Shown: piece after piece, positions 1,088-63,492 of the stretch
Layout of the letters: each line of letters begins with the position of its first letter
Position numbering within the stretch: the stretch's first letter is position 1
Virus record (IMG/VR): IMGVR_UViG_3300045988_150439
Direction: 5' to 3' (one strand)
Length of the DNA stretch: 64,000 bases
DNA from: a virus
Taxonomy: Duplodnaviria; Heunggongvirae; Uroviricota; Caudoviricetes
Made by a program: the position numbers and the translations under genes
The notes under the pieces: generated by a model
What the model was told of the DNA's origin: nothing
What the model saw: only the letters and a program-made list of their open reading frames with translations
Databases searched by the model: none

Positions 1088-1268
1088 TATAAGATTAACT
1101 GAGATATAGCTTACGCAAAGAAGGTAATAAATATAAAGAGAGATGTTCTGAGGTAATTTATTGTTGGTATTTAAGGTTATTTACAGATAGGTAAGTGCAT
1201 ACCTATATAAAAAAGATAAAATGTGATATAAATCCGCCATCCCGATTTGACTTTTCATGGAGGAAAAT

Positions 1269-4505: not shown

Positions 4506-4864
4506 TGTCCATGAAAATGGGTGACCTAGCAAAGCGCAAAGAGCCTGATGCACCGGCTAAGAACACAACTCCTTTGCGCCAACCAGTCAGACCACAGGGA
4601 CGCCCGACTCGTGGCAAAGAGAAAATTAAAAGCCGCACAATGTCACTGGAAGACGAATACTTCGAACTGCTGGAGATGATGAAGTTCATCCCTCGCTTCG
4701 AGAAGTTCACTCGTTCTGACGTGATTCGAGCAGCCATTTTCCATCTGGCAGAGAAGTCACCGCAGGAAATCGAGGACATCGTGAAGCTTAACGAGGCGAT
4801 CACAGCTGCCGACGTTACGATGCGTACCGATGAAATTAAACGAGAGTTGATGAAGAAAGGTTGA
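4505..4864 (+). CDS. small partition DNA-binding protein (ParG-like ribbon-helix-helix)
   Basis: 119 aa; basic N-terminus then RHH-like segment RTMSLEDEYFELLEMM...RSDVIRAAI; translationally coupled to parA. Confidence 0.5.
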   Translation: MSMKMGDLAKRKEPDAPAKNTTPLRQPVRPQGRPTRGKEKIKSRTMSLEDEYFELLEMMKFIPRFEKFTRSDVIRAAIFHLAEKSPQEIEDIVKLNEAITAADVTMRTDEIKRELMKKG

Positions 4865-4867
4865 TTA

Positions 4868-4890
4868 TATTGGGCGTTTGTTACGCCCAA
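4868..4890. repeat. perfect inverted repeat ttgggcgt / acgcccaa (hairpin or protein-binding site)
   Basis: Read directly; lies between the par operon and the AT-rich KAP gene. Confidence 0.4.
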
Positions 4891-4915
4891 TATATGAATT
4901 AAAGGATTGATACTA

Positions 4916-6610: not shown

Positions 6611-6620
6611 GTATTCATGA

Positions 6621-6671
6621 CCTGTTTCTGTATATAAATAATAAGTAACTTATTAAATATACGGAAGCAGG
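6621..6671 (+). repeat. AT-loop hairpin element copy 1 (probable terminator)
   Basis: 15-bp stem cctgtttctgtatat / atatacggaagcagg with AT-rich loop; near-identical element at 56885..56941. Confidence 0.5.
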
Positions 6672-6788
6672 TCTTTCAAAAGATACCCACCAGAACAACT
6701 CCCTTCCGTTTCCACTTCCAAAAACTGCCACCAATCGCTATCATCAGCTCATTGTGATAAGTAAGTAACTACCTACCAGGTGAGCCAC

Positions 6789-7529
6789 ATGAGCCAAATC
6801 TTTTTCGACACCATCGACAACGACCAGTACGACTTCATGACAGAGTGGAATACCGCTGTTATGGATAAGTGGGTTGCTGAAAACATTGGTTTGTCGCGCT
6901 GCAAAGACGAGGCTGAACTCTTCGATACGAAGTGGTTTGATTACCGCGACATGCATCCTCTTATGGCCACCTGTCTGTTTACGGAGGCATACAAACGTCA
7001 GTACTCAAATATCATGCTGACGCACGGTCGCGAACACTTTGAAACAGCTCCGTTCACCACCGGGTTAAAACGCCTGCCTTATCAGGAGTTGTCGACTGCC
7101 AATAAAACGTCGCTATGGAAAGCACGCCAGTTTGCTGACCGCTATTGCTGCTCATACGACTACTTTATCTCCACCGTTCTTTCCGCAGCTGCACGACGTC
7201 TGTGGGACAAGCTGCCTCGCCCACAGCATTTGTGGCAGCCAGAACTGATTGAGATATTTGAAGAGAAATTAGCCAGACGCGCAACAACCCGTCTGGATGA
7301 CTCTCTGGTTAGCTTTAAGCATATAGGAGACATGCAGTTCAACCCGATCCAGGAAAGCTATTTTGAGTGGATTCTGGAGCGTTTACGCACCATCCCCCGC
7401 AGCAAGCGCATACGCGCAATTTTCTCCGCTATCTGGCTAATGGAAATCGTTCCAGAGCGCCTTATTTCCGCCCACTTTCCAGAAGAACTGGAAGAAGCAC
7501 GGCGGTTTATTGATCCCCTATCCAATTAA
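6789..7529 (+). CDS. hypothetical protein
   Basis: ORF 6780..7529; ATG 6789 follows AGGTGA; no motif recognised. Confidence 0.5.
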   Translation: MSQIFFDTIDNDQYDFMTEWNTAVMDKWVAENIGLSRCKDEAELFDTKWFDYRDMHPLMATCLFTEAYKRQYSNIMLTHGREHFETAPFTTGLKRLPYQELSTANKTSLWKARQFADRYCCSYDYFISTVLSAAARRLWDKLPRPQHLWQPELIEIFEEKLARRATTRLDDSLVSFKHIGDMQFNPIQESYFEWILERLRTIPRSKRIRAIFSAIWLMEIVPERLISAHFPEELEEARRFIDPLSN

Positions 7530-7572
7530 CTAATACTAGAAAACAATTTGTTTAAAAAACAAAGGAAAGCAC

Positions 7573-8913
7573 ATGACCGAACTTTGCCATACAGGACGCG
7601 GGCTGTCCGAAGAGTTTGATGAAGATTTCCAGAACAGACTGACGGCATATTTTTGTCGTGATCACGAGTTTCTTACTCGTGCGGGAGATCTGGTTGTGCC
7701 TAGCCAATTTGCCAATGCGGCCAATGCCATATTGGTTAATATGGTTTCGGGCTATTACCGTATGTACAAGAGCGCGCCCTCTTCATCTGCAATTCTGGAT
7801 ATGCTTAAGCGTGCGAAACGCGATAAGACTATCCGTGAGGAACTATTCGCCGATGTTGTTGCTGCGTTTAAGCGCATCCTTGCAGAAAAATTGTCCGATA
7901 CCTCGTACATGGTTGACCAGGTATCAACCTTCGCAAAAAGCGTAGCGTTTGATGATGCTCTGATTAAGGCTGCTGAACTGAAAGAGAAGGGCGACTTTCA
8001 GGGGGCGATGGCAATCATGGCCAAGGTTCAGCAGATTGGATCGAACGAAGCGACCGGAATCTATGACTACTACACCTCAGCAAGTGAGCGACTGAAAGCG
8101 CGTGAATATGAGGCCTCAGAGGAGTATGTGCCAAACAGTATTACAACTGGACTCCCTCTTCTCGATAGGTTGCTGTACCAAAAAGGCTGGGCAAAGCGCG
8201 AAATGGTGCTCTTCATGGGGTTCGCTAAATCCGGTAAATCGACCGCAATGGGTGAGTTTTCCATAAACGCAACGCTTGCTGGCTACAATGTTCTGTATCT
8301 CTCGCTGGAGGTTCACACCACCATTTTATCCGACCGTTTTGACGCAAGATTGTCGGAGACAGAAATGTCCAAGCTGGTGGAACGGCGCGATGAGGTTCAT
8401 CGTAAGTTGGCAGAGTTGGGAGCCACGAAGGGGATTGGTAGTTTGTGGGTGGTTGAGCGTCCGTCAGGAAGTATATCACCGGCAGATCTGGATCGTATGC
8501 TCAACAGCATGAAAGCCAATGGCATGGTGCCTGACATGGTTGTTGTCGACTACGCAGATTTGATGCGTGCCAGTTATGACCTTCGTGATGATCGCGCCAA
8601 CATTCGTAGTATCTACACCGATTTGCGTGCTCTTTATGACAAGCATAACGTTGCTGGGATCACGGCATCGCAGACAAACCGTGAAGGTGGCGCGTCAGAA
8701 GTTGCCACAATGATGCACGCTGCCGACAACATCGAAAAAGTACGTATTGCTGACCTGGTAATAACGATCAACAAAACCGAAGAAGAAGAAGCGAAAGGAG
8801 AGGCTCGTCTCTACTTTGCTGGTTCACGTAACCAGCAGGGAGGGATCAGCATTCGCGTTAAACAAAACCTCGAACAAATGCGCTTCATTGAGCGAATCTT
8901 AGACGTTACCTAA
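7573..8913 (+). CDS. DnaB-like replicative DNA helicase
   Basis: 446 aa; Walker A GFAKSGKST mid-protein, Walker B-like DMVVVDYADL, ASQTNREG region; primase gene follows. Confidence 0.7.
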   Translation: MTELCHTGRGLSEEFDEDFQNRLTAYFCRDHEFLTRAGDLVVPSQFANAANAILVNMVSGYYRMYKSAPSSSAILDMLKRAKRDKTIREELFADVVAAFKRILAEKLSDTSYMVDQVSTFAKSVAFDDALIKAAELKEKGDFQGAMAIMAKVQQIGSNEATGIYDYYTSASERLKAREYEASEEYVPNSITTGLPLLDRLLYQKGWAKREMVLFMGFAKSGKSTAMGEFSINATLAGYNVLYLSLEVHTTILSDRFDARLSETEMSKLVERRDEVHRKLAELGATKGIGSLWVVERPSGSISPADLDRMLNSMKANGMVPDMVVVDYADLMRASYDLRDDRANIRSIYTDLRALYDKHNVAGITASQTNREGGASEVATMMHAADNIEKVRIADLVITINKTEEEEAKGEARLYFAGSRNQQGGISIRVKQNLEQMRFIERILDVT

Positions 8914-8994
8914 AAAATAAGCGTGGAGAACACCTCCACGCTTGATTCATTTGTGAAACAACTTTTCTTTTGCCAAACCACAAAAGAAAAACAC

Positions 8995-10173
8995 ATGAGC
9001 CTTTATGTTATATCAACATTTAGGTTGGTCACAATATTGCCTATTAAAAGTGGAATTATCGTGAGCGAGCTGAAAGAGCTAATTACCGAATTAGATTTTG
9101 AACAATGGTTGGACACTGAAGGTATCGTTTATCGACGTGGAGGCGTGAGTGCTCGCGGTCGTGAAGTGAATATCAAGGAGTGTCCGGTATGCGGCAGCTC
9201 CAACTGGAAGGTATATTTCAATCTGACCAGTGGTGTGGGTAAATGTTTCGCTGGCGACCATCCTGAAGAAATACAATTTAATAAGCTGGTGTTCCTCAAG
9301 CACTACAGCGGTAAATCACGGCGACAGTTCGAAGAATATGTGCAGAACGCCCTTCTTTCTCAGGGTTGGGCACCAAAGAAAGAAGAGATAGTGCTTGCAA
9401 GCACAGTCGAGTTAGAGGGGCCACTTGCACTCCCTCGTCATTACGAACTTCCTATAGATGGCCGTCTTCCAGACTATCTGGTTGAACGAAACATATCGCC
9501 TGAAATGGCAAAGTATTTTGACCTACGATACTGCGTCGAAGGTAAGCACGCCTATGTAGATCCGTATACAGATCAGGTTAAAGGACAGATATTCGATATG
9601 CGAATACTGATACCGGTTTACGATCTGGATGGGGTAATGAAGACATTTCAGGGACGAGACATTACCGGTACAGCAGAACGCCGCTACCTCTTTCCTATGC
9701 AGCTTCCAGCTTCAGGTAAATTTCTCTACAACGGCCATAATGCAGTCGGCAAACAGACTGTAGTTGTCTGTGAGGGTGCGTTCGATGTTATGGGGGTCAA
9801 ACGAGCTATTTTCGACGAAGAAACATTACGTGATTACGTGGAGCCAATAGGAACGTTCGGGATGCATCTATCTGGCAACACCACTCAGGATGCAGAAGAT
9901 CAGTTGGGCGCGTTCCTGACGCTCAAAGCGCGTGGATTACGTAATGTGATCATGATGTGGGATAGTGAAAAGCAAGCTATACGTAATACGATGGCCGCAG
10001 CCAGGCGACTGACCAGTATTGGTCTTAATGTCAAAGTGGCGTGTTTGGGCGAGGAAGGACTCGACCCGGGCGATGCAACGCCAGAGCAAATCATCAAAGC
10101 CTATTATCGGGCAAAACCGTATACCAAGCAGTTGGAGTTACAAAGCAAGGTTTTGGGCATTAAGGCTCTATGA
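8995..10173 (+). CDS. DNA primase (zinc ribbon + TOPRIM)
   Basis: ORF 8923..10173; probable ATG 8995 in conserved aaaaacacATG context. Zinc ribbon CPVCGSS..GKC, TOPRIM-like VVVCEGAFDVMG. Confidence 0.7.
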   Translation: MSLYVISTFRLVTILPIKSGIIVSELKELITELDFEQWLDTEGIVYRRGGVSARGREVNIKECPVCGSSNWKVYFNLTSGVGKCFAGDHPEEIQFNKLVFLKHYSGKSRRQFEEYVQNALLSQGWAPKKEEIVLASTVELEGPLALPRHYELPIDGRLPDYLVERNISPEMAKYFDLRYCVEGKHAYVDPYTDQVKGQIFDMRILIPVYDLDGVMKTFQGRDITGTAERRYLFPMQLPASGKFLYNGHNAVGKQTVVVCEGAFDVMGVKRAIFDEETLRDYVEPIGTFGMHLSGNTTQDAEDQLGAFLTLKARGLRNVIMMWDSEKQAIRNTMAAARRLTSIGLNVKVACLGEEGLDPGDATPEQIIKAYYRAKPYTKQLELQSKVLGIKAL

Positions 10174-10251
10174 TAACAATCACCTTTAAAATAAGTAGAT
10201 GATTACTTATCTTTCTGTGAGAATACTTTCATCTGTTAGCTAGGAGTTGGT

Positions 10252-11028
10252 ATGAAAGACGAAATTCAGAAATTAGCCTGCGACATCATTGATAAAACTG
10301 GTTTAGAAATCAGCGAGAGCAATCGGCTAGACATCATTGAAAAAGCCGTAAAAACAGCAATGGATCATATCGCCACTCGTTTGGTCGAGATCCCGCTACC
10401 AGGGCTACCTTATCTGAAAGTTGAGTTACACGTATGGGGTGAACCTTCTTGTTCACGGCGTTCTGCATTAGTTGTTTTTATTAGCAAAGAAAACCCGCTC
10501 AGTCTTAAAGTGCAGGTTGGTGCATGGATGGATGGAAAAGTGATCTACACAAATACCGTTTTTTGTCTTTCAAACGACGAAACTATTGAAGCGGCCATTC
10601 AAGAAGCAGTTCTAGCAATGCGCAGCAGCGGTTTGATGAAGAATAACTACGAAGAGTACTTGCGTTCGATAAGTGGTGAAAAGACATTATCTCTGAAAGC
10701 AGATTTCGTTACCCCGAAAAATCTGTTGGAAGTCTTGCTTAATAAAGGGGCTAATGATGCCGTAAATGTAATCAGAGAGAGTGAGTATGCGTCTCTTTGC
10801 GACATGTGCAAAAGCCAGTTGGATCTGGTGCATATCGTTATTGATGCTGGGAAGGCATGTGATGGCGTAATGGCGGAATTTGCTTGGAAGGTGGTCAGGA
10901 TTGCTAACGAATTACCGATGATAGAGCAAGAGGCCAAATCATACGCCACCAATCATGTCACAGAGCTTCTTGTCCCCTATCGCTTAGAAAGCAATCAGCG
11001 CAAGATGGTTAGCTGGGGAAGTTGGTAA
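10252..11028 (+). CDS. hypothetical protein
   Basis: 258 aa ORF with AGGAG upstream; no motif recognised. Confidence 0.5.
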   Translation: MKDEIQKLACDIIDKTGLEISESNRLDIIEKAVKTAMDHIATRLVEIPLPGLPYLKVELHVWGEPSCSRRSALVVFISKENPLSLKVQVGAWMDGKVIYTNTVFCLSNDETIEAAIQEAVLAMRSSGLMKNNYEEYLRSISGEKTLSLKADFVTPKNLLEVLLNKGANDAVNVIRESEYASLCDMCKSQLDLVHIVIDAGKACDGVMAEFAWKVVRIANELPMIEQEAKSYATNHVTELLVPYRLESNQRKMVSWGSW

Positions 11029-11083
11029 TCTCTCCGCGCGTCGTTTTTTACGCAAATAACGATAGGTAAGTACAAGATTATTT

Positions 11084-13696: not shown

Positions 13697-14086
13697 AAAC
13701 ATGGTGATAAGTATTTACTTACTTATCTTTTATGTATAAGATGACTTTGTTTTCGTTGAGACGCGACTGTTTGAACTTAAATACAAGTGCAAACGAAGAA
13801 GTCTATCTGGCAGTAGCCTAATAAGCCAAACACCAGCGAGGTCAGTTTCCAGCCTCGTTACCGAAATGGGACACACTGAGCGAGTGTGATTGCAGAACGC
13901 AGGAGGGAACATTCATGTTCCCTCCGATGAAGTAACAGAATGGGCGGTTGGTATATTTTCAACTCCATATGACTCCCGGATTCTTAGCCACTGACCGCCC
14001 ATCCTGTTACGTCATTTTGTTCAATTATGTCGTTTATACTGGGTTAAAAAGCGGCGACGTAGCCCGGCTGGTATGGTTAGCCAGCA

Positions 14087-16450: not shown

Positions 16451-17272
16451 TTAAAAATCTTGCTTTACTTTATCCATAGTCAGAATTTTGCTAATAATTG
16501 AAGATTCAAATCCATCTAAACCTGAGAGAAAGTTAATTAGCTTTTGGATATGTTGTTCTTTAGGTATAAGTATATATTTTATATCATTGAACTCAAAATC
16601 AATGCCAAACTTTGAAAATTTTGAGCTAATTTTTGCTTTGTCATCAGAAGTGATAACACGCTCCAAACTCAGACTAGGCCATAAATCACCAATAAAAGGA
16701 GCTGGCACATAACGCCACTCTTTCTCGTCTGCATATATATAATTCTCTATTGTTTTATTATCTTTTCGCTCTAGCTTGCCTCTGTAATTTTTCATATAAC
16801 GCAGTAAATTATATAGATCAGAATATTCTGCTTTCAATTTCTCAAACTCTATTCTGTTTTTGGTATCTAAATTTCCTCTAGCCTTCCAAAGCGGCACCAA
16901 CTTTTTTTTAATAAGTCGAATTCTGGCATTGTATTTAGAAAATATTTCACTGCTCTTATTCATATATAGAACTGGGTGTAGACCTTTCTTTTCCGCCCAA
17001 GACTTAGTTAGCCCAAGACCGAATTCCCCATATTTTCCGCTATGATCTCTGATTTGTGATAGTTTTATGTCACAAAACGATACCATTGGTACTGCAAACC
17101 TCCTGCGTCCCCCGACTCCTCTTATTTCCTCGCGAGCAAGAAATGGTTTAAAATATTTCTCAGCCAATATGCTATAGAAAGCATCTTCGTTTTTTGTAAA
17201 ATGAAACAACGTGGTTGGATGAAGACTATAAACAGATTCAACATTCGCATCAGGATTTTCAAGGATAGTCAT
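16451..17272 (-). CDS. AbiGi-like protein (candidate abortive-infection component)
   Basis: ORF 16451..17317; probable ATG 17272 follows AAGGTG. N-terminal LFHFTKNEDAFYSIL...PMVSFCDIKL...YGEFGLGL pattern resembles what I recall of AbiGi proteins; AT-rich. Confidence 0.4.
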   Translation of the reverse strand: MTILENPDANVESVYSLHPTTLFHFTKNEDAFYSILAEKYFKPFLAREEIRGVGGRRRFAVPMVSFCDIKLSQIRDHSGKYGEFGLGLTKSWAEKKGLHPVLYMNKSSEIFSKYNARIRLIKKKLVPLWKARGNLDTKNRIEFEKLKAEYSDLYNLLRYMKNYRGKLERKDNKTIENYIYADEKEWRYVPAPFIGDLWPSLSLERVITSDDKAKISSKFSKFGIDFEFNDIKYILIPKEQHIQKLINFLSGLDGFESSIISKILTMDKVKQDF

Positions 17273-17561
17273 TTTACACCTTGTGGAAAGCCAGTTTAGT
17301 TCTGTAAATAGTATCACACGACAGGCGGCTATTCTTCTATCAATAAAGGATAGGTAAGCACTTACTTTTTACGCGCGTTAATTGTATAGTTCTTTCGGAT
17401 ACTCACTTGAAAGGACTCAATATGGGAAATAAATGTAAACATGCGCGTCGCGCATCTCGTCAGGTGCAGAAGTCAAATCCATACATTCACGAGCACTACC
17501 ACCTCAGCTCTTTCACTAACCGCTACACGTTCCCCAGCGAAGCGCATAACGAGGCAAGGCA

Positions 17562-18931: not shown

Positions 18932-19104
18932 CAATCATATTAATAACGCCTCAGAATTTAAATTCCTCCCTTAAATGATTCCATACCTACTATGTATGGA
19001 ATCATTACTAAAAATGAGTTACTTTGACTCTTGATCCTATAAGAATCTATGCCTAATATACTGTTTACTTATACAGTGTATCGGCGTAACTCGGTGATTG
19101 TCAT

Positions 19105-20208
19105 ATGAAAAATAGCTTTGACAGAGCACGCGCAGCGGAGAACACCTCAAAAGAGGCGATTGAGTATCTCGAAAGAGCATCTCAAATGCAGGCCGTTATG
19201 ATCTCGCAGGTTAGCAATGACATGAGATTCTCAGACGCATTCATGTTATTCACTCGCTTATCTCTGCTAATAACAAGACGTCGGCCAGAGATCGCTGTTC
19301 ACTGTATTTTGATACATGTTTTGCCGCACATTGCTGATGTAAAAGTAAGTGACATTAATAGGTTCATGGTGAACCAACTGGTCAACCCACTAATACTGGA
19401 TGGCAAAATTGTTATGGGCCGCCGCGTTTTCTCTCTGATGAAGCAGTTCCTTAGCTGGTGCGCCTTCCAGGGGATGATAGACGTGTCACCGTTAAACGAT
19501 ATGTCACTTAACAAAGTTGCCGGTGGCGCAAAGCCCACACCTCGCGAGCGGAAGCTGACCGACGCAGAGGTATGGGTGTTCTGGAATATATGGGACTACT
19601 TCAATGTGTGTGCTGGTACAAAATGGGCGGCAAGGCTATGTCTTGTATCCGCAAGACGACCTGATGAAGTACTGCGGGCTAAAAAAAGTGAGTTCAATCT
19701 TAAGCGTGGGGTTTGGAATCAAGGCAAAAGAAACAAGTCAGCACGTGAGCATTCGCTGCCTTTAAGCACATTAATGCGCACATGCATTGAAGAGTTGTTC
19801 GAATACGGTAAAGATAGCCAGTGGCTCGTTCCTTCGAATAAAAAAATCGGGAAAGACCTTCCTATGTCTAAAGTGGCAATAGCCCAGGCATTACGTCGTA
19901 TTCTGGAACGACCAGAACTGATGGAGCTTGAGCCATTTACACCCCGAGATTTGCGCCGTACTGCGCGTAGTTACTTCCCAGCATTAGGCATAAGCCAGGA
20001 GGTATCACGTAAAATCATGAACCACAGTCTTGAGGGGATAGATCGGGTCTACGACCGGCACGATTATATGGACGAGATGCGAGACGCCTTAGAAAGTTTC
20101 TCGACGTACATCGCATCAATCGTAGAGCAACCGGATTTAGACGAAATTGACCACAAATTTAAGGGAGATCGTCTATCAACAGAGCTTATTCGTGTAAATT
20201 TTTCATAG
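19105..20208 (+). CDS. tyrosine site-specific recombinase
   Basis: 367 aa; C-terminal catalytic region with RDLRRTARS, HSLEG, and Tyr motif VYDRHDY. Confidence 0.7.
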   Translation: MKNSFDRARAAENTSKEAIEYLERASQMQAVMISQVSNDMRFSDAFMLFTRLSLLITRRRPEIAVHCILIHVLPHIADVKVSDINRFMVNQLVNPLILDGKIVMGRRVFSLMKQFLSWCAFQGMIDVSPLNDMSLNKVAGGAKPTPRERKLTDAEVWVFWNIWDYFNVCAGTKWAARLCLVSARRPDEVLRAKKSEFNLKRGVWNQGKRNKSAREHSLPLSTLMRTCIEELFEYGKDSQWLVPSNKKIGKDLPMSKVAIAQALRRILERPELMELEPFTPRDLRRTARSYFPALGISQEVSRKIMNHSLEGIDRVYDRHDYMDEMRDALESFSTYIASIVEQPDLDEIDHKFKGDRLSTELIRVNFS

Positions 20209-20589
20209 AGACTTTATGGCCTCAACAACCTTTTGTGATGCGCCTTTCTCTTTACCGAATCGCTCGTTATATGCAGCAAGAACCTGTTTTTCGTCCTCGT
20301 TAAGAGGAGCAGTGCCTTCTTTGTATAAAAATGCTGCGAGTTCGGGTTGACGTTCTTCCAGCACCATCATCATAAGACGACTTGGCTCAATACCCAGTGC
20401 CAGCGCCAGCGGACGAACCTTATCGATAGGCAAAGGAATTTTGCCGCTTTTAATTAAAGAAAGGTTGTTGGCGTTTTTATACCCAATTGTTTTGGCTATC
20501 TGGGCCTGGCTCATAGGTGAGGATTCAATCAACCCTGCGATAAAAGCAGCGTAGCGACTTTCTATAAATTCAATCTTGTTATCAGACAT
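20203..20589 (-). CDS. helix-turn-helix DNA-binding regulator (XRE-like)
   Basis: 128 aa; HTH segment MSQAQIAKTIGYKNANNLSLIKSG; convergent with recombinase gene. Confidence 0.6.
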   Translation of the reverse strand: MSDNKIEFIESRYAAFIAGLIESSPMSQAQIAKTIGYKNANNLSLIKSGKIPLPIDKVRPLALALGIEPSRLMMMVLEERQPELAAFLYKEGTAPLNEDEKQVLAAYNERFGKEKGASQKVVEAIKSL

Positions 20590-20840
20590 GGTTACAACCT
20601 TTGCGCGTTCAATTCTCTCTGGTAAGTGCTTACCGATATTACATCAAAGGTTAGGGTTGTAAAGCTATTATCATTTTTTTCGATAGGCACTTAAAATACC
20701 GGTTAAAGGCCATTGCACGGAGAAAAATTAGCCCAAAATAGGTAAGAAAATCAACTTTCATATGATATGAATGTATTCAGTATTGATACAAATTTTAGTA
20801 GTATTCCTTACCATAGTATAAGTTAGAATGGATTGATTGA

Positions 20841-21053
20841 ATGAAAACCACTATTTCCAGCCTAATCGCTCTTGAGATGGGACACGTACAGAAATTAGCT
20901 GATGAGTGTGTAGCTGACATCCTCACCGATCTGCCGAATGAGCAGATTCAGGTTGGTGTGAATGACACAACTGGCTTTATATTCGAACTTAACAACAAAC
21001 GCTTCACGCTTCTCAATACCGGCTCCTGGTCTTTAGCCGTCAGAATCTGTTAA
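20841..21053 (+). CDS. hypothetical protein (70 aa)
   Basis: ORF only; followed by inverted repeat ctgcgcgaa / ttcgcgcag. Confidence 0.35.
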   Translation: MKTTISSLIALEMGHVQKLADECVADILTDLPNEQIQVGVNDTTGFIFELNNKRFTLLNTGSWSLAVRIC

Positions 21054-21151
21054 CCCCTCTTCTCCCTGCGCGAATGGCTTAGTTCCCTGTTCGCGCAGTG
21101 CTACATTAAACAAACTAGTAAATAATTTGTTTTCATAACAAAGGATTAGCC

Positions 21152-23260
21152 ATGTCTAAAAAACGTTCCATCAAAGAGGTTCAGGACTTCCGTGACAGTG
21201 TAAAACGAGTAGTCGCTCTCCTTTCAGGCAAAAACATCCCTGTTGCAGAACGAGGGGACGACGCTTATGTACGCTATAACGATGATGGAGAGCCAATTCT
21301 CGTAAACATCCCATCAATCCCGGATAACGCAACACCGGCATTGATGAATGCTGTGCGCGGATTTCTCGATCATGAGGTTGCTCACATTTTGTTTACCGAT
21401 ATTCGTGTGTCCAACAAAATGAGAGAAAAAGGACGCGTTCCTTCCTGGTCGCTATGGAATGCCTTAGAAGACGTGTTCATCGAGCGAAAAATGGGTCAGG
21501 TCTTTAACGGAACAAGACGTAATCTGATGGCAACTCAGCGCCTTATAATCGAAAAAGTCTTTAAACCAAAGGCTTCAGAGGCTATTGCTTATTGTGGCAA
21601 AGATCAGCGCGCGCTTTTTCTAAACTTCTTTCTCTGTCCGGTTGTAAGAGCCTGGGATGGCCAAGCACCGTTCGTAGATTTCATGGATGAATATTGGCCT
21701 GTCATTGAGAAACCAATTTCATTATTAAAAGAACATGGTATCGATGTGGCCATGCGTAACATGTCTTGCACCGAGGATTGTGTAAAGGTGGCTGCGACCA
21801 TAGCTAAGATCCTCAAAGACACTGAAAGTGAAAGCAAAGGTAAGGAGTCAGCTCCGGGAAAAACTTCCGATCCTTCAGACGCTGACCAGACGGATGCCTC
21901 TGGAGAAAATAATGAAGATAACGAAGATCATGAGACACCCTCAGCGTTAGATAATCACAAATCTATCAAATCAGAATCACACAGTAAGCACAAACATGAT
22001 AATAACGACAGTGATGATTCAGATAATTCTGAATCATCAGAAACAATATTCAATGATACAGAAAATGATAAAGAGGTATCAGATTCTGATGCTTCTGATA
22101 ACGCGGCGTCAGAATCATTAACCGCTGACCACGAAAAAAGAAAAACGACAGAAGACGGCTCTTCAGATATTCCAACTCCGTCAAAAATGAGTCTGGAAGA
22201 GGCTTTAGAGGTGCTGGATAGCATAGAAGATGAAGTCGGAGGCATGACAGAAGATGCTCTATCCGAAACGATTAAAAGCGAGTTAACAGAAAGCTCGAAA
22301 AGCGAATACAGGCCATACAATCGCTCATACGACTTCATCGGCTCGATTGATCAGGCAGAAGCCCATATCAAACGGCTTATTAAAACATTCTCCGATATTG
22401 ATTTAGGTGGATATCCAATCAGCCGTTATCGCATCGTTCCTGAAGGCAACCAACTCTTCGACAAATATATTGAAAAGCACCTTTCGTCAGGTGTTTCGTC
22501 GACGCTGGCAAAAGACCTGGAACGTGCAATAGCAAGCAGAAACAGAGTTCAGTTTATACCTGGCCAGCGTCGGGGGCGCATTCATGGTTCAAGTATCTAC
22601 AGATTAACAATGAATGATGATCGCGTGTTTCGTAAAAAAGAAGAATCTAAAGCCGTTAACGCCTGTGTTCAACAAGTGATTGATTTATCGGGTTCAATGA
22701 GTGGCGAAACGATAAAACTAGCTCTTGCAAGTGCATATACCATCGCCGATGCACTTGATCGAATAAATGTTCCCAACATTATCACCGGCTTCACTACATT
22801 TGGCAATCATATGGCAGCAGGAGAACTTAAGGCTATCAAATATGAGTTCTCTCGCTTTGAATCTTTAATGCTACCTATCATCAAAAATTGGAATGAAAAA
22901 GCAAATTCTCGCGAAGTTCGCTCACGTATGGGGTGCGTAGGCTACACATTCCCACTTCTTAATAACGTGGATGGTGAAAGCATAGCCAGCCTTGCATCGT
23001 TATTTTCCGGTCGCTTGGAGGACAGGAAGATCATGCTTGTTCTGAGCGATGGCGAGCCGTGGGCTGTTGGGAGAGGTTTTGACGCTCATTTGCGTTCGGT
23101 TGCGAAGCAAATTGAAACGCAGACTGACATTGATTTGATGGCAATTGGCATCATGACTGACGCACCGGAGAGATTTTACTCAAATCATGCCCTGGTAACG
23201 AGCGTTGATAGTCTTGGTTCATCTGTAGTTACTGAACTATCTCGTATCATTTTGAAGTAA
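21152..23260 (+). CDS. CobT-like VWA-domain protein
   Basis: 702 aa; long Ser/Asp/Glu-rich acidic linker; C-terminal VWA with MIDAS motif DLSGSMSG; AAA+ partner follows. Confidence 0.6.
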   Translation: MSKKRSIKEVQDFRDSVKRVVALLSGKNIPVAERGDDAYVRYNDDGEPILVNIPSIPDNATPALMNAVRGFLDHEVAHILFTDIRVSNKMREKGRVPSWSLWNALEDVFIERKMGQVFNGTRRNLMATQRLIIEKVFKPKASEAIAYCGKDQRALFLNFFLCPVVRAWDGQAPFVDFMDEYWPVIEKPISLLKEHGIDVAMRNMSCTEDCVKVAATIAKILKDTESESKGKESAPGKTSDPSDADQTDASGENNEDNEDHETPSALDNHKSIKSESHSKHKHDNNDSDDSDNSESSETIFNDTENDKEVSDSDASDNAASESLTADHEKRKTTEDGSSDIPTPSKMSLEEALEVLDSIEDEVGGMTEDALSETIKSELTESSKSEYRPYNRSYDFIGSIDQAEAHIKRLIKTFSDIDLGGYPISRYRIVPEGNQLFDKYIEKHLSSGVSSTLAKDLERAIASRNRVQFIPGQRRGRIHGSSIYRLTMNDDRVFRKKEESKAVNACVQQVIDLSGSMSGETIKLALASAYTIADALDRINVPNIITGFTTFGNHMAAGELKAIKYEFSRFESLMLPIIKNWNEKANSREVRSRMGCVGYTFPLLNNVDGESIASLASLFSGRLEDRKIMLVLSDGEPWAVGRGFDAHLRSVAKQIETQTDIDLMAIGIMTDAPERFYSNHALVTSVDSLGSSVVTELSRIILK

Positions 23261-23355
23261 TTAAAACAGCCTTAAAGATAAGTAACTACTTACCATAGTT
23301 AATGGTATATTTATATAAGAACTTGAACGCTCATTAGAGAACAAAGGAAAAGCGC

Positions 23356-28322: not shown

Positions 28323-28593
28323 AGAATTATGGCGCTTGTTGAGGAAGTCACTCCTCTTACGCACTTTGTTTTGCCATGCCGGCAGTTAGCTTCTGCCTTT
28401 GACTATTCATGCGGCAACCCCGCATTTCGCCACAATGGGCAATTCACTTTTATGGAATAAACTGGCCGTTGTGTCGATTTAATTAGCATGGCCTTACCAT
28501 GCTAATTTATTCAACTTGTAAAATCCTACAAATCTATCCACTCAGGCTTACACCGTCTTCGTTATTGTAGAAATGAGGATCATCAGCGTTGAA

Positions 28594-28809
28594 TCAGCTT
28601 AGAGCAACGACATTTGCTGCTGCTGGGCCTTTAGCCCCATTCTCGATAGAGAATTCGACCTGCTGGCCTTCTTCCAAAGTGCGGAAATTATTACTCTGAA
28701 TTGCCGAAAAATGTACAAAAACATCTTTACTGCCATCAGCAGGAGAAATAAAGCCAAAGCCTTTATCAGAGTTAAACCATTTTACTAAACCAGTCATTTT
28801 ATTAGACAT
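28594..28809 (-). CDS. cold-shock protein (CspA family)
   Basis: ORF 28594..28905; probable ATG 28809 follows AAGGTAG. About 71 aa with RNP1 KGFGFI and RNP2-like VFVHF. Confidence 0.8.
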
Positions 28810-29138
28810 AGATACTACCTTCTTAATTTTGTGAGCCACATAGTGCGGCGAGAATTTGATCTGTATAGATTGGGACTTACTTAGGCACTTAAGGAGGAGA
28901 CTCACGAAGAAGGGAAATCAGAAGATAACACTGAACTGAGACTGCTTTACTAAAACTGCTTACATAAGGTCTGTCTTGCAAACCAACGATGCTATTAACG
29001 CATACCCCTTCTTTTCATGCAACCTTTATTTTTCAAAGATAACTAATTTTTGTCACCATTGGTTTAGTAAACGTTAACGAACCAGACGATGCCAGACACC
29101 TTTACAGAGAACAGATGCCCGCCAATTGGCGGGCATCA

Positions 29139-30673: not shown

Positions 30674-30790
30674 TTTTTGATAGATAATAAGTAAGTACTG
30701 ATCTATCATTTAACAGCTCGAAAGAGCCACGAATGAACGAAAGCCCAACGCGCATAGCGCCATCGGCCAAATCACAACAAGGAGAAACAC

Positions 30791-35437: not shown

Positions 35438-35464
35438 AGGCGTCCAAACGGACGCCTTTTTTGT
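35438..35464 (+). terminator. rho-independent terminator
   Basis: aggcgtcc-aaac-ggacgcct followed by tttttg. Confidence 0.65.
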
Positions 35465-35525
35465 ATGTTGAAAATGTATAAGCACTTACTTATCATTAGC
35501 ACACAATAACCACATAGGAAAACAC

Positions 35526-36603: not shown

Positions 36604-36651
36604 CGCAATTATCTTATTAAGAAAATAATTTGTTTAAAAGGATAAGAAAAC

Positions 36652-37408: not shown

Positions 37409-37447
37409 GTTTACAGTAAAATTTATATAAGTTAGTATCTACCTATC

Positions 37448-41103: not shown

Positions 41104-41357
41104 CCCTCCAGATCGTATATTGGCGTAGATAGAATCTACGCCCCCTCAAAATAGCTCTCATAGCGTTCTACAGTGATCCTGTCTTATTTTTAGTCATACA
41201 GACAAGCAAAGTTGCGCCACGATAAATAGGTATATACTTACTTATAAATTTTGTATATTAAGGCGCTCGTTTCATTCCTAACATACCGTTATGCATAGTT
41301 GTTTACCTTCTCATTGCTCTTAAAATTTGTATCAAAATAACCACAAAGGAAAAACAC

Positions 41358-42443: not shown

Positions 42444-42672
42444 AGCAAAGTCGTTATGGGAGCTTTCGAGACTTTGCCATCACGATGAAAAGACTTGAAC
42501 GAGGCCAGACGGTGATGTTTCACAAGCCCTACCCGCCACAAGGAAATCCCGTAGCGTTTTATCTTGGAAGGTTAACAAGAAAAGGCGTATTGAGGCGCAG
42601 ATCCTTCCCGGCGCATACGGAGTTCAGATTGAAAGAAGGTCAAAAGCTAACACACGGTATCAAAGGTGTTAT

Positions 42673-45901: not shown

Positions 45902-45935
45902 TCTCATTGATAGGTAAGTGCTTATCTATTAATAT

Positions 45936-45966
45936 GGGCCACTAAATATAGTGGCCCTCTTTATTT
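45936..45966 (+). terminator. rho-independent terminator
   Basis: gggccacta-aata-tagtggccc followed by tctttatttgg. Confidence 0.6.
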
Positions 45967-48290: not shown

Positions 48291-48390
48291 CATATGGTGG
48301 GGTATATCCCCACCTTATCTTTGATTTGTAAGCCTTGTTTAAACACATAAGATAACAACTTGTTTAAACACATCAAAAAAGGAAAAACAC

Positions 48391-49610: not shown

Positions 49611-50480
49611 ATGAACTTTACCAAACTGACTGACCACCTGAAACTTGCCACCGATCGACTCATTGGATTTAAGCCAGAACCATATGAGTTGCATGAAGGC
49701 CATGGTGTAGCCACTGAAAGTATTTACAAGATGGTCGATCAGTTTCATGAACTCTTCCAGCATCCGAGACGCGTTATGCCGACACCAGAGCTGCTTCGTC
49801 TCCGTGCAAGCCTGATTCATGAAGAAGCTGTAGTGGAAGGTATTCCAGCCGCAATGAATGGGGATATTGAGCAACTGCTGGATGCAATGGCCGACTTTTT
49901 ATACGTTGGTGTTGGTACGATGGTCTCCATCAAAGGTGGTATTTCTACCGGCATGACCTATTACACGCAGGAACAGAGCATTGATCGCTTTATGCAGACA
50001 ATTTTTGTGCCCGGTAACACTGTTTTCGATGATATGGCAATGCCATTTCAGGAAGCTCGTGAGGCGTCATGTATGCTCGAAGAGCTGGCAGATAAACTTG
50101 AGAAGAAGACTGTTAAGGATTCTGAGCTGATTCAGGAACTGCGCCGTGTAATGAACAAAATCTATGTGGCGTGCATGATGACTTATCGACTGGCTGATTT
50201 CCTCGGTATCAATGTCGTCGAGCTGGTTGGCGAAATTCATCGGTCTAACATGACAAAATTATGGCCTGCTGATGTTGAGGAACGTCGCCAGGCTGTGGCC
50301 AACTGCAAATACGACTCTTCAGATCTGGGATTCCGCCATGCTGATGGCACCGATAAGATGATCGGTTTTCGAATTTCCGATGGAAAGATTCTGAAGTCTC
50401 CAACCTATAGTGATGTCGATTTATCCTCCTTTGTTGAGCAAGCTAAAGCCTCAGCAATGTATGGAATGATCAAAAAATAA
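49611..50480 (+). CDS. MazG-like NTP pyrophosphohydrolase candidate
   Basis: ORF 49413..50480 overlaps nrdB; probable ATG 49611 follows AAGAAGGA. Acidic helix pattern EEAVVEG...DIEQLLDAMADF. Confidence 0.35.
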   Translation: MNFTKLTDHLKLATDRLIGFKPEPYELHEGHGVATESIYKMVDQFHELFQHPRRVMPTPELLRLRASLIHEEAVVEGIPAAMNGDIEQLLDAMADFLYVGVGTMVSIKGGISTGMTYYTQEQSIDRFMQTIFVPGNTVFDDMAMPFQEAREASCMLEELADKLEKKTVKDSELIQELRRVMNKIYVACMMTYRLADFLGINVVELVGEIHRSNMTKLWPADVEERRQAVANCKYDSSDLGFRHADGTDKMIGFRISDGKILKSPTYSDVDLSSFVEQAKASAMYGMIKK

Positions 50481-50548
50481 TTGTAGGTAGTTATCTATCT
50501 GTGTATATTTAACATGCGTAATAAAACTCTGGAATGACTATTCGTTTT

Positions 50549-50575: not shown

Positions 50576-50650
50576 CTGTCTGGTCTTGTTCTCTCAATGA
50601 ATGTAAACTCACATGATGAATAAGTAATTACTTATCTTTGTGAGGTTTTT

Positions 50651-56208: not shown

Positions 56209-56267
56209 ATTGCCAGACATAAAATCAAATGCAAAAATAGGTAATCACTTACCTATCGAGAAAGAAG

Positions 56268-57024: not shown

Positions 57025-57279
57025 ATGAACCACTTTAAGGAAACCAACATGTCATACCCGACTAATGTCGTTGCGCTCGTAGAGAGCGATTTTCTGGCTA
57101 AGGCTCGTGAAATGATGAAAGATCGCGAGCAGGCTTTCAACTTGTACGAATGGGCAATTAAGTGCTTGCATCTTGGGGAGCATCGCGAACTTGTTGAACA
57201 GCTTTTAGGTGAGTTGATCAACGAGGTGTTTGCCTTGAATGTTCAACTACATGGTCGAGAAAATAATCAATCGAAATGA
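57025..57279 (+). CDS. hypothetical protein (84 aa)
   Basis: ORF only; helical. Confidence 0.35.
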   Translation: MNHFKETNMSYPTNVVALVESDFLAKAREMMKDREQAFNLYEWAIKCLHLGEHRELVEQLLGELINEVFALNVQLHGRENNQSK

Positions 57280-57299
57280 TAGATAAGTACAAACTATTC

Positions 57300-57861: not shown

Positions 57862-58455
57862 ATGACGACGAAGACACCAGCCCGATCGCAAGAAAAAACT
57901 CGCAAAAAAGCCAAAAACAAAAATTCTCCCCGCGCCAATTCCACAACGCCTGTCGTAGAGTTCAATCCCCAGCTTAAAACCGTGAAAATCTTCAGTGATG
58001 GCTCTTGCCTTAAAAATCCGGGTGGCCCGGGCGGTTACGGTATAGTTCTCCAGTATCGTGGTGAGGAACGCGAGTTCTCAGATGGTTTTCATAGCACCAC
58101 CAATAACCGCATGGAGATGATGGGGGCACTTATTGGGCTGGAGCGTTTGAAATATCCATGCAACGTTATTTTGCACTCTGATAGCCAGTATCTGAAAAAC
58201 GGCATGACACAGTGGATGAAATGGTGGAAACGCAATGGATGGGTGACTTCTGACAAAAAACCGGTAAAGAATGTTGATCTGTGGAAGCGTCTGGATGAGG
58301 CCGCAAGTCGACATAATGTTCGCTGGAAGTGGGTTAAAGGTCACGCCGGGCATCGTGAAAATGAAATATGTGATCGACTCGCGAAGATCGCAGCTTTTTC
58401 CGCAGCAGATATGCCTCACAAGAAAGATATTGGTTTTGTTTACAACAAGCAGTAA
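57862..58455 (+). CDS. rnhA: ribonuclease HI
   Basis: ORF 57811..58455; probable ATG 57862 follows AGGAG. Motifs [34 protein letters not shown]; basic N-terminal extension. Confidence 0.85.
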
Positions 58456-58600
58456 GTAAGTGTTTACCTATCATTTTAAATCATGTATCTTATCAGCGTC
58501 AGGATGACAATGTGTCGGTAAGACACAGTTCCAGGATGGAACGAGAAAGGCGGCTGGCAATCGCCAGCCGCAACTCTTTCTGACACTGGATGGAGTCCAC

Positions 58601-59302: not shown

Positions 59303-59395
59303 CGGTTGTTAGTGCATATGCATTGACCGTCTTTTCGTAAGCAATTCATGTAACTAGAAAACAACTTGTTTTAACAAATAATAAAAGGAAAGCAC

Positions 59396-60010: not shown

Positions 60011-60118
60011 TGACCGAAATAGAGAGTTTGCACCTTTACGTTTAGCTTGCTCCCCTTTTATGCCACATCACAATAAAGCCAATAAGAAAACAACTTGTTT
60101 AAGCATTAGGAAAAACAC

Positions 60119-61745: not shown

Positions 61746-63431
61746 ATGAATACAGCCCTTTCCATCATCGACGATGCCAACTCAAACACTGCTATCGACT
61801 ATCGGCAGGAAATGAACGTCATCCACGAAATTGTGGCCGAGTGCGAGAAAGAGATCGCCTTCATGTATCAGGTACACGACTTCGTTTATGGCGACGAACG
61901 CCACAACATGATTAATCGCCTGCTGAGACTAAACCATCGACCAGATGAAGATCGCTCGCGTTTAAATCGAGGTTGGTTGGATAAAGTCGATCTGGAATGG
62001 GTGAAACAGAATATTTGGGCCGAGTACTGGAGGAAGGTCACGGACATGACTAACGTTTTGCTGATCATGCCAGCTTCCCGTCGAGATGAGTGGCGCGAGC
62101 AGTTTATAGAGGGCAAACAGGAAGTCATCAAAACTGACAGAACCGGCTACCAGATGAAGGTTAAAGAGTTCGTTGGTGTACCGGAGTTCAAAGCAGAAAC
62201 GGTCATACCCACGATGCTTAATTTGCTGAATGACAGGCACAAATATCTCTCTGAGCGCGTGTATGGCTTGTTTAAGGCGCTGAGTCCTGCGCACAAGACA
62301 AATAAGACAAACGGTTTCAGCGAGCGTCTGATAATCGCTGACTGCATTTCTGATTTCTGGCGGGACAGCGTTAGCGTGAACTATCGCAAAGAGGACTACA
62401 TCGACGATCTGCGTGTCTTGCTTCATTTCTTCGCGCACAAAGAATTTATTACCATCAACCGCACTGCTGAGGTGCTATCAGCTGCGTATCGAGCAAACGA
62501 CTGCCAGACCGGTGACTGGATTAACGTCGATGGAAATCTGATGCGCGTGAAGATGTTCAAGAACGGCAACGTTCACTTTGAAATACATCCTGACGTGGCC
62601 TGGAAGTTGAATGAGGTGCTGGCTTACAGTATGCCTGCTGCAATCCCCGCGCCATGCCGAACTGCGCCAAAAACACGGGCACCAAAGCAGTTCGGTTTAA
62701 TCCAGAAGACGATCTCCGTGCAGGTTCGCACTGCGCTTCGTGACGGGCGATTGAGCAAAGACAAAGGCGTATGGTACTTCTCTGATTCAGCTCTCCAGAA
62801 GTCGCAGGTGGAAGAGCTTGAGCGCACACTGAGCTTCATTGGCGGCGTGCAGGAGAAAAAGCACTGGCAGTTCCCGTATGACATCGGCCATACGCTAAAT
62901 ACGATTGTGGCTACCGGTTTAATACCGGATACAAAATCACACCAGTTCTACCCTACCCCACGCTTGATTGCTGAGTACGTTGCCAGAGCCACTGAATTGA
63001 AGCCTGGTGAGAAGCTGTTGGAGCCTCAAGCCGGACGTGGGGATCTTCTGGCCTATATTAACGCCGATCTGGAAGATGTTACCTGCATAGAAATCGCACC
63101 TCTCTTCGCTGATATCCTGCGTGGAAAAGGGTATACGAACACGATTTGCTGCGACTTCATAAAGTGGTCTGAGGACAACGCAGGTTATCAGTTCGACAAA
63201 ATCGTTATGAACCCGCCGTACTCGCTTGGTCGTCATAGAGAGCACACGCTGGCTGCGCTGGGGCATCTGAAAGTCGGCGGGCGTCTTGTAGCAGTATTGC
63301 CGGGCACTGCGCCAATACTGGACTGGATGACGATGGATAATTACGTTTATGCCAGAGGGAAGTCGTTTACCAACGAGTTTGAAGACACAGGGATCACAGT
63401 CAGCGTATACGTTTTCAAACGCGTTAAATGA
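61746..63431 (+). CDS. DNA methyltransferase with large N-terminal domain
   Basis: 561 aa; C-terminal FYPTPR, SAM-binding LEPQAGRGDLL, catalytic VMNPPYS (motif I before IV); N-terminal ~390 aa unassigned. Confidence 0.55.
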   Translation: MNTALSIIDDANSNTAIDYRQEMNVIHEIVAECEKEIAFMYQVHDFVYGDERHNMINRLLRLNHRPDEDRSRLNRGWLDKVDLEWVKQNIWAEYWRKVTDMTNVLLIMPASRRDEWREQFIEGKQEVIKTDRTGYQMKVKEFVGVPEFKAETVIPTMLNLLNDRHKYLSERVYGLFKALSPAHKTNKTNGFSERLIIADCISDFWRDSVSVNYRKEDYIDDLRVLLHFFAHKEFITINRTAEVLSAAYRANDCQTGDWINVDGNLMRVKMFKNGNVHFEIHPDVAWKLNEVLAYSMPAAIPAPCRTAPKTRAPKQFGLIQKTISVQVRTALRDGRLSKDKGVWYFSDSALQKSQVEELERTLSFIGGVQEKKHWQFPYDIGHTLNTIVATGLIPDTKSHQFYPTPRLIAEYVARATELKPGEKLLEPQAGRGDLLAYINADLEDVTCIEIAPLFADILRGKGYTNTICCDFIKWSEDNAGYQFDKIVMNPPYSLGRHREHTLAALGHLKVGGRLVAVLPGTAPILDWMTMDNYVYARGKSFTNEFEDTGITVSVYVFKRVK

Positions 63432-63492
63432 TAGGTAAATACTTACTTAATTTGTGTAAGAATGTAGTTACTAAACGATAAGAGAAAAACAC

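Follow-up and report, generated by a model that had tools for sequence, protein, structure and literature searches.

A dispersed 22-bp palindrome as the probable operator of a candidate lysogeny repressor in SSU5-type phage-plasmids

The nrdA promoter and its element

The sequence analysed here is a 64,000-nucleotide (nt) stretch of DNA from the IMG/VR record IMGVR_UViG_3300045988_150439 (Caudoviricetes), referred to below as the window. Between positions 40000 and 52000 it is 99% identical to Escherichia coli plasmids of ~110 kb, including pLF82 (phage Cyrano, OV696614), and 77% identical to Salmonella phage SSU5, while ~22 to 86 kb of Cyrano is collinear with the window apart from a few exchanged cargo segments. 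Together, these two matches and the collinearity identify the window, from its sequence, as that of an E. coli SSU5-type phage-plasmid. Its genes, nearly all on the plus strand, serve lysis, partition, replication, recombination and nucleotide metabolism, and it also holds a RepA replicon and a module of an integrase and a helix-turn-helix (HTH) protein. Coding sequence makes up 85% of the window and non-coding sequence 15%.

A preliminary description, made from the sequence alone, had pointed out a palindrome that recurs upstream of many transcription units, and one copy, at 45909..45930 upstream of nrdA, was the starting point of this analysis. This site (3 mismatches to the consensus given below, 28 bits) fills the spacer of the promoter pair TTGATA-17-TAATAT (45907-45935), which had been proposed at this position and was verified by a consensus scan. 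Both the site and the promoter hexamers are kept in SSU5 and in Klebsiella. A terminator-like hairpin lies directly 3' of the promoter and site (45936-45957). Judging from its sequence, it could stop transcripts that arrive from upstream, yet would not form in transcripts from TTGATA-17-TAATAT, because their predicted start falls inside its left arm. GC-rich hairpins, some with a T-run, also directly follow sites at ~5470, 15560 and 22470 in Cyrano.

Sequence and abundance of the palindrome

The consensus of the recurrent element, hereafter motif 1, is a 22-bp palindrome, GATARGTAAGT|ACTTACYTATC, in which the two 11-mer halves adjoin directly; the unspecified central base of the preliminary description is absent. 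The motif is present at all 16 positions listed there, to within a few bases, and the true 22-mers start at 1186, 6756, 10190, 11061, 13706, 17349, 23277, 30686, 35473, 37426, 41225, 45909, 50615, 56236, 58451 and 63430. Enrichment over a shuffled background, a check that had been suggested, was clear. In 300 dinucleotide-preserving shuffles of the window, 0.12 sites with at most six mismatches were expected (shuffle maximum 1) compared with 16 observed, and 0.007 sites with at most five mismatches compared with 12. A half-site weight matrix gave 23 matches of at least 10 bits in the window and 1.7 in shuffles, while the lone 11-mer was only weakly enriched (26 versus 11.8). All 16 strong sites are intergenic, with at least 17 of the 22 bases of each being non-coding.

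The two shorter versions that had been reported are also real, one at 6640 (AATAAGTAACTTATT) and one at 50478-50499, and three weaker copies had been overlooked, at 20617-20638, 57278-57299 and, inside a gene, 21946-21967. The sequence at 6640-6654, AATAAGTAACTTATT, resembles motif 1 minus its central bases, with the outer arms directly abutting, and the 22-mer of this partial site is also found near the end of the Cyrano record, at 108356. The complete Cyrano genome has 32 matrix sites, and the window ~20. Sites occur in the gaps of the head and tail operons (terL|portal, major capsid protein gene|next gene, M|L and J|fibre), and only two lie between 84.6 and 108.4 kb. The suggested family of early promoters is therefore too narrow a description, as sites are also found in the lysis and head/tail operons of the complete element. 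Flank logos showed that the information is confined to the 22 bases and weak AT flanks. A fixed-phase promoter element outside the palindrome was considered and rejected, as these logos show none. Searches of the accessible literature for the motif, or for regulation and lysogeny control in the SSU5 family, returned nothing relevant, the one match being to an unrelated phage-plasmid family.

Relationship of the sites to promoters

A consensus scan found site-overlapping sigma-70-like pairs on the gene strand at 30681, 35468, 37410/37422, 45907 and 56210. Promoters were also scored with our own sigma-70-type score in three genomes. The best scores at sites were 7.6-8.3 bits on the gene strand, 5.1-5.4 bits on the opposite strand and 2.8-3.5 bits in random windows, and the gene strand outscored the opposite strand at 48 of 61 sites. 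At the site of the Klebsiella HTH gene, the only one to precede a minus-strand gene, the minus strand scores higher. In the AT-rich Acinetobacter element described below, the same scoring was too noisy to reveal a strand bias.

The palindrome takes a variable register to the promoter, with its centre near -20, -22, -30, -42 or +6, and individual registers are conserved across three genera. At the RecA|C56 junction and inside the portal gene, it lies in the spacer and its right edge forms the -10 (TTGAAA-17-TATCAT). The window copy of this type (35473..35494; promoter 13.1 bits) lies 5' of CYRAN_56 (C56), right after a terminator at 35438-35457. The portal-gene copy, which is outside the window at Cyrano 3526-3547, is intragenic and well conserved and lies at the 3' end of the gene; with its TTGAAA-17-TATGAT, it may serve the scaffold and capsid genes as an internal promoter. 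At 45907, the palindrome again occupies the spacer, but here the -35 is formed by its left edge. At 37426..37447 it covers -10 to ~+10 of TTTACA-17-TAGTAT (37410) and abuts the ATG at 37448, and at 56236..56257 (3 mismatches, 28 bits), 5' of a Dam-like methylase gene, it covers the predicted transcription start, from ~-5 to +17, of a conserved TTGCCA-17-(TG)AAAAAT (56210).

In another conserved register, the palindrome lies 5' of an extended -10 element, as it does at 1186, 10190 and 63430. The site GATAGGTAAGTGCATACCTATA at 1186..1207 (3 mismatches, 27 bits; orthologues at SSU5 27473 and Klebsiella pJN2-26 69441) is 61 nt 5' of the holin gene, and the extended -10 TGATATAAA follows 20 nt past it. 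The site at 10190..10211, whose position between the primase and CYRAN_34 genes is conserved, has 7 mismatches yet scores 22 bits, and is followed by the conserved extended -10 TGTGAGAAT (TGTrAGAAT in the comparison of relatives). At 63430..63451, a site over the stop codon of a DUF4942 gene precedes the conserved extended -10 TGTAAGAAT, which is also found after 10190. The site at 41225..41246, 5' of an SbcD-like gene, is likewise followed by a conserved extended -10 (TGyCATAAT in relatives). Between the genes for UvsY and a gp32-like single-stranded DNA-binding protein, site 30686..30707 lies within TAGATA-17-TATCAT. The site at 13706..13727 (4 mismatches; conserved in three genera), after CYRAN_39 and 5' of a tRNA cluster, has a -10-like TAAGAT on its 3' side (TTTACT-17-TAAGAT, 8.9 bits). 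The adjoining segment 13728-13790, TTGTTTTCGTTGAGACGCGACTGTTTGAAC, is near-identical in E. coli, SSU5 and Klebsiella; it lies ~700 nt 5' of the tRNA cluster and carries no annotated gene.

Promoter-like pairs, as had been proposed, thus overlap several sites, while several others have no credible promoter. The latter include terL|portal, the site at 6756..6777 (4 mismatches; kept in SSU5 and Klebsiella), 11 nt 5' of the CYRAN_31 homologue, and that at 50615..50636, 14 nt 5' of thyX and directly before its ribosome-binding site. Promoter-less sites probably act as roadblocks or auxiliary sites. The scatter of registers is, as far as sequence can tell, typical of operators and hard to square with an activator. 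At this level, the palindromes overlap promoters of lytic genes, as is expected of a prophage repressor regulon.

Conservation and nature of the sites

In E. coli, Salmonella SSU5 and Klebsiella phage pJN2-26, motif 1 occupies matching gene junctions, with ~25 orthologous positions. Across 17 junctions compared between genera, identity is 85% for the 22-mer and 68% for the 30-nt flanks (the pairs are non-independent). The left half of a site agrees with the reverse-complemented right half at 6.63 of 11 positions, compared with 7.26 of 11 when halves are re-dealt among sites. No compensatory changes between the halves were seen, their mismatches being independent, and an Rfam search at the sites gave no family match; this fits a dimeric DNA binder and not an RNA structure. 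Of the 36 viral contig stretches that contain the exact 16-mer core, 32 are SSU5-like. A search of 5,426 complete E. coli genomes gave near-consensus sites at 640 places, all on plasmids (197 genomes) and none chromosomal, which argues against the regulon of a host factor. It is highly probable that the motif-1 sites are protein-binding DNA sites that control the transcription of lytic genes.

The candidate repressor

The preliminary description had named the HTH protein encoded at 20203..20589 (minus strand) as a protein to test for binding, and it proved to be the best candidate. Motif 1 lies on its own promoter in four enteric lineages, its recognition helix is invariant, or changed, along with the motif, and its gene is clearly expressed in the lysogen, unlike those of all other DNA-binding candidates. 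This 128-amino-acid protein, a homologue of CYRAN_45, matches phrog_8 'transcriptional regulator' (E = 1e-11) and, weakly and below the cut-off, Pfam HTH_19. A sequence search against solved structures gave no match. Its AlphaFold model (mean pLDDT 72; 82-88 over residues 11-80) was matched by Foldseek to the XRE HTH dimers C.BclI, C.AhdI, HigA and SinR and to a Salmonella phage repressor; these matches are generic, with weak E-values and a reported probability of 1.00. According to the model, the protein has an XRE HTH fold. Homologues, named XRE-family regulators, are found almost only on contigs of 100-116 kb, and in 865 plasmid records from Klebsiella, Escherichia, Enterobacter, Yersinia, Salmonella and Acinetobacter. 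None was found at E ≤ 1e-3 in P1 or in any phage record outside the SSU5-like family.

The HTH gene has a minus-strand promoter, TTTACA-16-TAATAT (20663-20636), and a putative autoregulatory copy of motif 1, CTCTGGTAAGTGCTTACCGATA with the core GGTAAGTGCTTACC, lies over its -10 and start (20617..20638). The outer arms of this copy are weaker. Its core GGTAAGYACTTACC overlaps the promoter, and both are conserved in E. coli, Klebsiella, pHCM2 and pMT1. Among the enteric elements that share the motif, the putative recognition helix GYKNxNNLSLIKSGKIPLP is near-invariant, with whole proteins only 56-66% identical.

A more distant comparison came from Acinetobacter baumannii, where a phage-plasmid of the AB group is related to SSU5-type elements (PMC7969092). 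This element (plasmid NZ_CP156934.1) encodes an HTH homologue that is 48% identical and has its putative recognition helix changed to GFKRPNVLSMIKSGETRLP. The plasmid carries 32 copies of a variant palindrome, ATCAGTCAGTACTGACTGAT, which has the centre AGTACT and 7 of 10 half-site positions in common with motif 1, and one copy is just 3' of the promoter of the HTH homologue. In this variant, (AT)CAGTCAGTACTGACTG(AT), the outer bases are conserved better on one side.

An S24 peptidase domain is absent from the HTH protein, and the SOS induction reported for Cyrano must therefore be indirect. A good LexA box, TACTGTTTACTTATACAGT, is found at 19059-19077, right after TTGATC-17-TAATAT and 29 nt 5' of the integrase start; Klebsiella, pHCM2 and pMT1 have retained it. 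The integrase gene (19105-20208, plus strand) is convergent with the HTH gene (20203-20589, minus strand), with a 6-nt overlap, and its mRNA rises from 5.6 to 10.3 log2 in macrophages. A LexA-controlled integrase promoter may thus be a route for SOS induction of a repressor without a cleavage domain. Divergent from the candidate repressor gene is a homologue of CYRAN_46 (20841-21053; 70 amino acids), which shows the strongest macrophage induction of the region (4.3 to 10.8 log2) and may have a Cro-like or anti-repressor function.

Expression of the HTH gene and of genes behind the sites

Cyrano is induced by genotoxic stress, and CYRAN_45 is among the genes expressed in lysogens in lysogeny broth (LB; PMC9928086). 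Expression values for strain LF82 were taken from the RNA-seq data in S1 Table of that study, with columns read, following the supplement legend, as LB, Dulbecco's modified Eagle medium (DMEM) and macrophage. In LB lysogens, CYRAN_45 reached 96 normalised counts against a background median of 9.8 (~10-fold). The other candidate DNA-binding genes were at background (ParB-like CYRAN_119 and CYRAN_120, 5.0 and 9.5; CYRAN_37, 6.4) or at approximately twice background (CYRAN_114, 18; CYRAN_46, 20). The first genes behind sites were also at background in lysogens (median log2 3.04).

Between DMEM at 6 h and macrophages at 6 h, expression changed by +1.16 log2 at site junctions and by -0.39 at others (Mann-Whitney p = 3e-4). 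Steps up in macrophages were seen from C55 to C56 across site 35473 (4.05 to 7.66 log2) and from C59 to C60 across site 37426 (4.96 to 8.61). In DMEM, expression dropped across site 6756 (C30 to C31, 10.3 to 2.6 log2; no intrinsic terminator predicted), site 41225 (C64 to C65, 7.1 to 3.5; no plus-strand terminator predicted) and site 11061 (C34 to C35, 8.5 to 4.7; no terminator predicted). These drops are compatible with a roadblock, and also with Rho-dependent termination.

Loss of the HTH module in SSU5

SSU5 retains all motif sites but lacks homologues of the integrase, the HTH protein and CYRAN_46. Compared with the Enterobacter plasmid pECL-90-1, its flanks are 94% and 98% identical, and a 7.6-kb segment is replaced by 29 bp (SSU5 42640-42668 versus pECL-90-1 3278-10869). 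The lost segment comprises CYRAN_46, the HTH gene, the integrase gene, a toxin-antitoxin pair, glutaredoxin, phoH and an insertion sequence element. The left flank of SSU5 is 98-99% identical to several Enterobacter plasmids, and the junction was found in none of 822 related plasmids. The argument that SSU5 keeps its sites without the HTH gene, and that this protein is hence not the binder, was considered and rejected, as the flank identities indicate a recent deletion. Because the loss of the module is recent, the retained sites are uninformative about a lytic function. SSU5 has been called virulent (PMC5427195), and a recent deletion of an immunity module would explain both this and the intact operators. 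The deletion removes further genes too, and virulence was reported in another context.

A repressor regulon and its alternatives

The idea of a regulon under one factor, with operators built into promoters, is favoured by the conserved, protein-type palindromes that overlap gene-strand sigma-70-like promoters, although the regulon extends beyond early genes. On balance, we think it probable that the 22-bp palindrome serves as operator for a lysogeny repressor encoded by the phage-plasmid itself, namely the 128-amino-acid XRE-type HTH protein; both the identity of the binder and the repressive effect of its binding are inferred. A repressor dimer would sit on each palindrome, ~20 in the window and ~30 in the whole element. 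Most palindromes would overlap the core of a sigma-70 promoter facing lytic genes (replication, recombination, nucleotide metabolism, lysis, head and tail), and binding would shut these promoters, while sites in short promoter-less gaps would probably be roadblocks or auxiliary sites. The weaker-armed copy on the repressor's own promoter would provide negative autoregulation. The virus genes would thus be kept silent during plasmid life, and loss or inactivation of the repressor would free all units together.

Several observations weigh against this model. The silence of lytic genes in the lysogen fits a missing activator as well as a present repressor, and CYRAN_34 is fairly well expressed in lysogens despite its upstream site. 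No credible promoter was found at terL|portal, 6756 (CYRAN_31) or 50615 (thyX). The immunity region has one full site only, with none conserved on the divergent CYRAN_46 promoter, and an 11-bp half-site conserved over its full length is long for a single HTH. The site on the HTH promoter is weaker evidence than it looks, because almost every operon of the element has a site. In Acinetobacter, it is not the motif alone that differs, as the host and all other proteins of the element have changed too. The assignment of the HTH protein as the binder is circumstantial.

A more detailed scheme joins these elements, but we regard it as speculative and, taken as a whole, rather unlikely. Here, ~30 symmetric sites would silence the whole 85-kb lytic genome directly, through promoter occlusion at some and as palindromic 'stoperator' roadblocks at others. 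SOS induction would proceed by convergent transcription and without repressor cleavage: the LexA-controlled promoter would drive integrase transcription head-on into the 3' end of the repressor gene and so lower repressor synthesis. The elements would form one cross-genus immunity group, because operator and recognition helix are the same in those of E. coli, Salmonella, Klebsiella and Yersinia (including pHCM2 and pMT1).

The most serious rival is a phage-encoded activator of middle or late promoters that lack a -35, similar to Lpa of P1, which acts at a 9-bp inverted repeat centred on the -22 region; in this case, the copy on the HTH promoter would shut off the repressor during lytic growth. 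P1 late promoters have the arrangement AAGTGACTT-N4-(-10), whose core AAGT.ACTT resembles the motif centre AAGTACTT; at many sites of motif 1, a -10-like TATCAT or TATTAT arises from the right edge together with the next two bases, and at many a good -35 is absent. Near-consensus sites in the virulent SSU5, lysogen silence and stress induction would all fit as well. An activator of this kind needs a fixed register, however, whereas the spacing between the palindrome and the -10 (best-scoring or conserved) ranges from ~-42 to +6, there is no fixed-phase information outside the 22-mer, and several sites lie within complete promoters (TTGAAA-17-TATCAT, TTGATA-17-TAATAT and TTTACA-17-TAGTAT). No Lpa homologue was found by tblastn (nothing below E = 0.07), and the sites of SSU5 are uninformative here, given that it lost the HTH module only recently (98-99% identity to plasmids). 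We therefore consider an activator improbable.

An outside chance, at most, is given to another protein of the element that silences or organises it in the manner of KorB, such as the two ParB-like proteins, the FljA-like CYRAN_114 or the small CYRAN_37 or CYRAN_46. The ~30 dispersed palindromes are reminiscent of the KorB sites of RK2 (IncP-1), which number 12. The ParB-like genes are conserved in all relatives, including SSU5 and the Acinetobacter element, and a site lies just 5' of the parB operon at Cyrano 105106, Klebsiella 34774 and Acinetobacter 28811. Their expression in lysogens is at background, however, as is that of CYRAN_37, with CYRAN_46 and CYRAN_114 at approximately twice background, compared with 96 counts for the HTH gene. 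In addition, SSU5 retains all these genes yet is described as virulent, and a conserved, promoter-overlapping copy of the motif is seen at the HTH gene and at none of these candidates. Hairpins acting at the RNA level (processing, stability or translational control) and sites for a host transcription factor are both very improbable: a 9-10-bp hairpin is possible, intergenic RNA holds the sites, in some cases right at a start codon or ribosome-binding site, and the motif is the same in all enteric hosts and different in Acinetobacter, but the halves mismatch independently without compensation or an Rfam match, the sequence itself is conserved beyond pairing, none of the 640 near-consensus places in E. 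coli is chromosomal, and 32 of the 36 viral stretches with the exact 16-mer are SSU5-like.

Remaining sites and other features

The other copies of motif 1 are more varied in quality and position. The site at 11061..11082 (6 mismatches; Klebsiella orthologue at 80737) has a good left half only and abuts the start codon at 11084. The site at 17349..17370 (4 mismatches; Klebsiella counterpart at 85596) is in a divergent gap of the cargo region, between a minus-strand open reading frame (16451-17317) and a plus-strand glutaredoxin-like gene at 17562; Cyrano is without the window segment that holds it. An intergenic site at 23277..23298 (6 mismatches) separates the CobT-like and CobS-like genes, and the weak intragenic copy at 21946-21967 is within the CobT-like gene, with stronger copies near the same place in SSU5 and Klebsiella. 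Stop codons are covered by the weak site at 50478..50499 (MazG-like gene; 7 mismatches; orthologues at SSU5 72356 and Klebsiella 9621), the weaker site at 57278..57299 (CYRAN_80; 6 mismatches, 18.9 bits; SSU5 orthologue at 78708) and the site at 58451..58472 (RNase H gene, 5' of CYRAN_83).

A second palindrome, AAACAAnTTGTTT, occurs at 3789-3801, 7541-7553, 21120-21132, 36623-36635, 48353-48365, 59359-59371 and 60088-60100, seven copies in the window compared with 0.6 expected. The copies lie 19-36 nt 5' of the starts of the ParA, helicase, CobT-like, CYRAN_58, NrdB, TciA-like and CYRAN_87 genes, in gaps that are all without motif 1, and GATAAT is often found ~16 nt further 5'. Cyrano, SSU5 and Klebsiella pJN2-26 each carry 17-20 copies, which in Cyrano are densest at 85-98 kb, a part poor in motif 1. 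An exact copy is absent from the Acinetobacter relative, which has only three matches with one mismatch. The ParA operon behind one copy is expressed in lysogens, and AAACAAnTTGTTT therefore looks like a separate regulon. An Rfam search also gave a full-length match to the cspA thermoregulator at 28569-28987 (minus strand; 184 bits); the element therefore carries a cold-shock protein gene with an RNA thermometer.

Significance and comparison with known systems

SSU5-type phage-plasmids are common in clinical Enterobacteriaceae, with examples including pHCM2 (S. Typhi), pMT1 (Y. pestis), Klebsiella pKpn types and carriers of CTX-M-15 such as pECOH89. A defined operator and a candidate repressor would provide a regulon map that is open to testing. 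The model would explain the virulent behaviour of SSU5 and would predict immunity relationships among elements from different genera. It would also point to means of inducing or curing these plasmids, or of constructing virulent derivatives for therapy.

The closest parallel in layout is the C1 system of P1, likewise a phage-plasmid, in which one repressor acts at many operators over ~90 kb, each on a sigma-70 lytic promoter; the P1 record annotates the operators Oref, Omat, Ossb, Oc4, OrepL and Olpa. Many dispersed operators are thus common to both, whereas a C1-family repressor and its asymmetric 17-bp operator are not. P1 operators are asymmetric 17-mers and those described here 22-bp palindromes, and the XRE HTH protein has no detectable similarity to anything in P1. 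The SSU5-type element also has sites within its head, tail and lysis operons, whereas in P1 the control of such operons is indirect, by way of Lpa. The Lpa-dependent promoters themselves share an inverted-repeat core, AAGT.ACTT, near the -10 and many copies before late genes; P1 has 11 late promoters with the 9-bp inverted repeat AAGTGACTT four bases before the -10. That box has 9 bp and a fixed N4 spacing, however, compared with 22 bp and a variable register for motif 1.

In mycobacteriophage L5 (Cluster A), ~30 'stoperators' bound by the repressor gp71 lie in short intergenic gaps of early and late operons. The promoter-less sites described here, across which transcription drops without a predicted terminator, are similar. 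Stoperators are asymmetric 13-mers that work in one orientation, whereas motif-1 sites are palindromic, and an elongation block may underlie the expression drops. With lambda CI, 434, P22 C2 and Rep of Salmonella phage SPC32H, the candidate repressor shares an HTH fold, a palindromic operator, an operator on its own promoter and an adjoining divergent small gene. Those systems use one or two clustered operator regions together with antitermination, whereas the operators here are spread over ~85 kb. As proposed, the system has a layout like that of the P1 C1 network and a chemistry like that of classical CI-type repressors, perhaps with a stoperator-like component.

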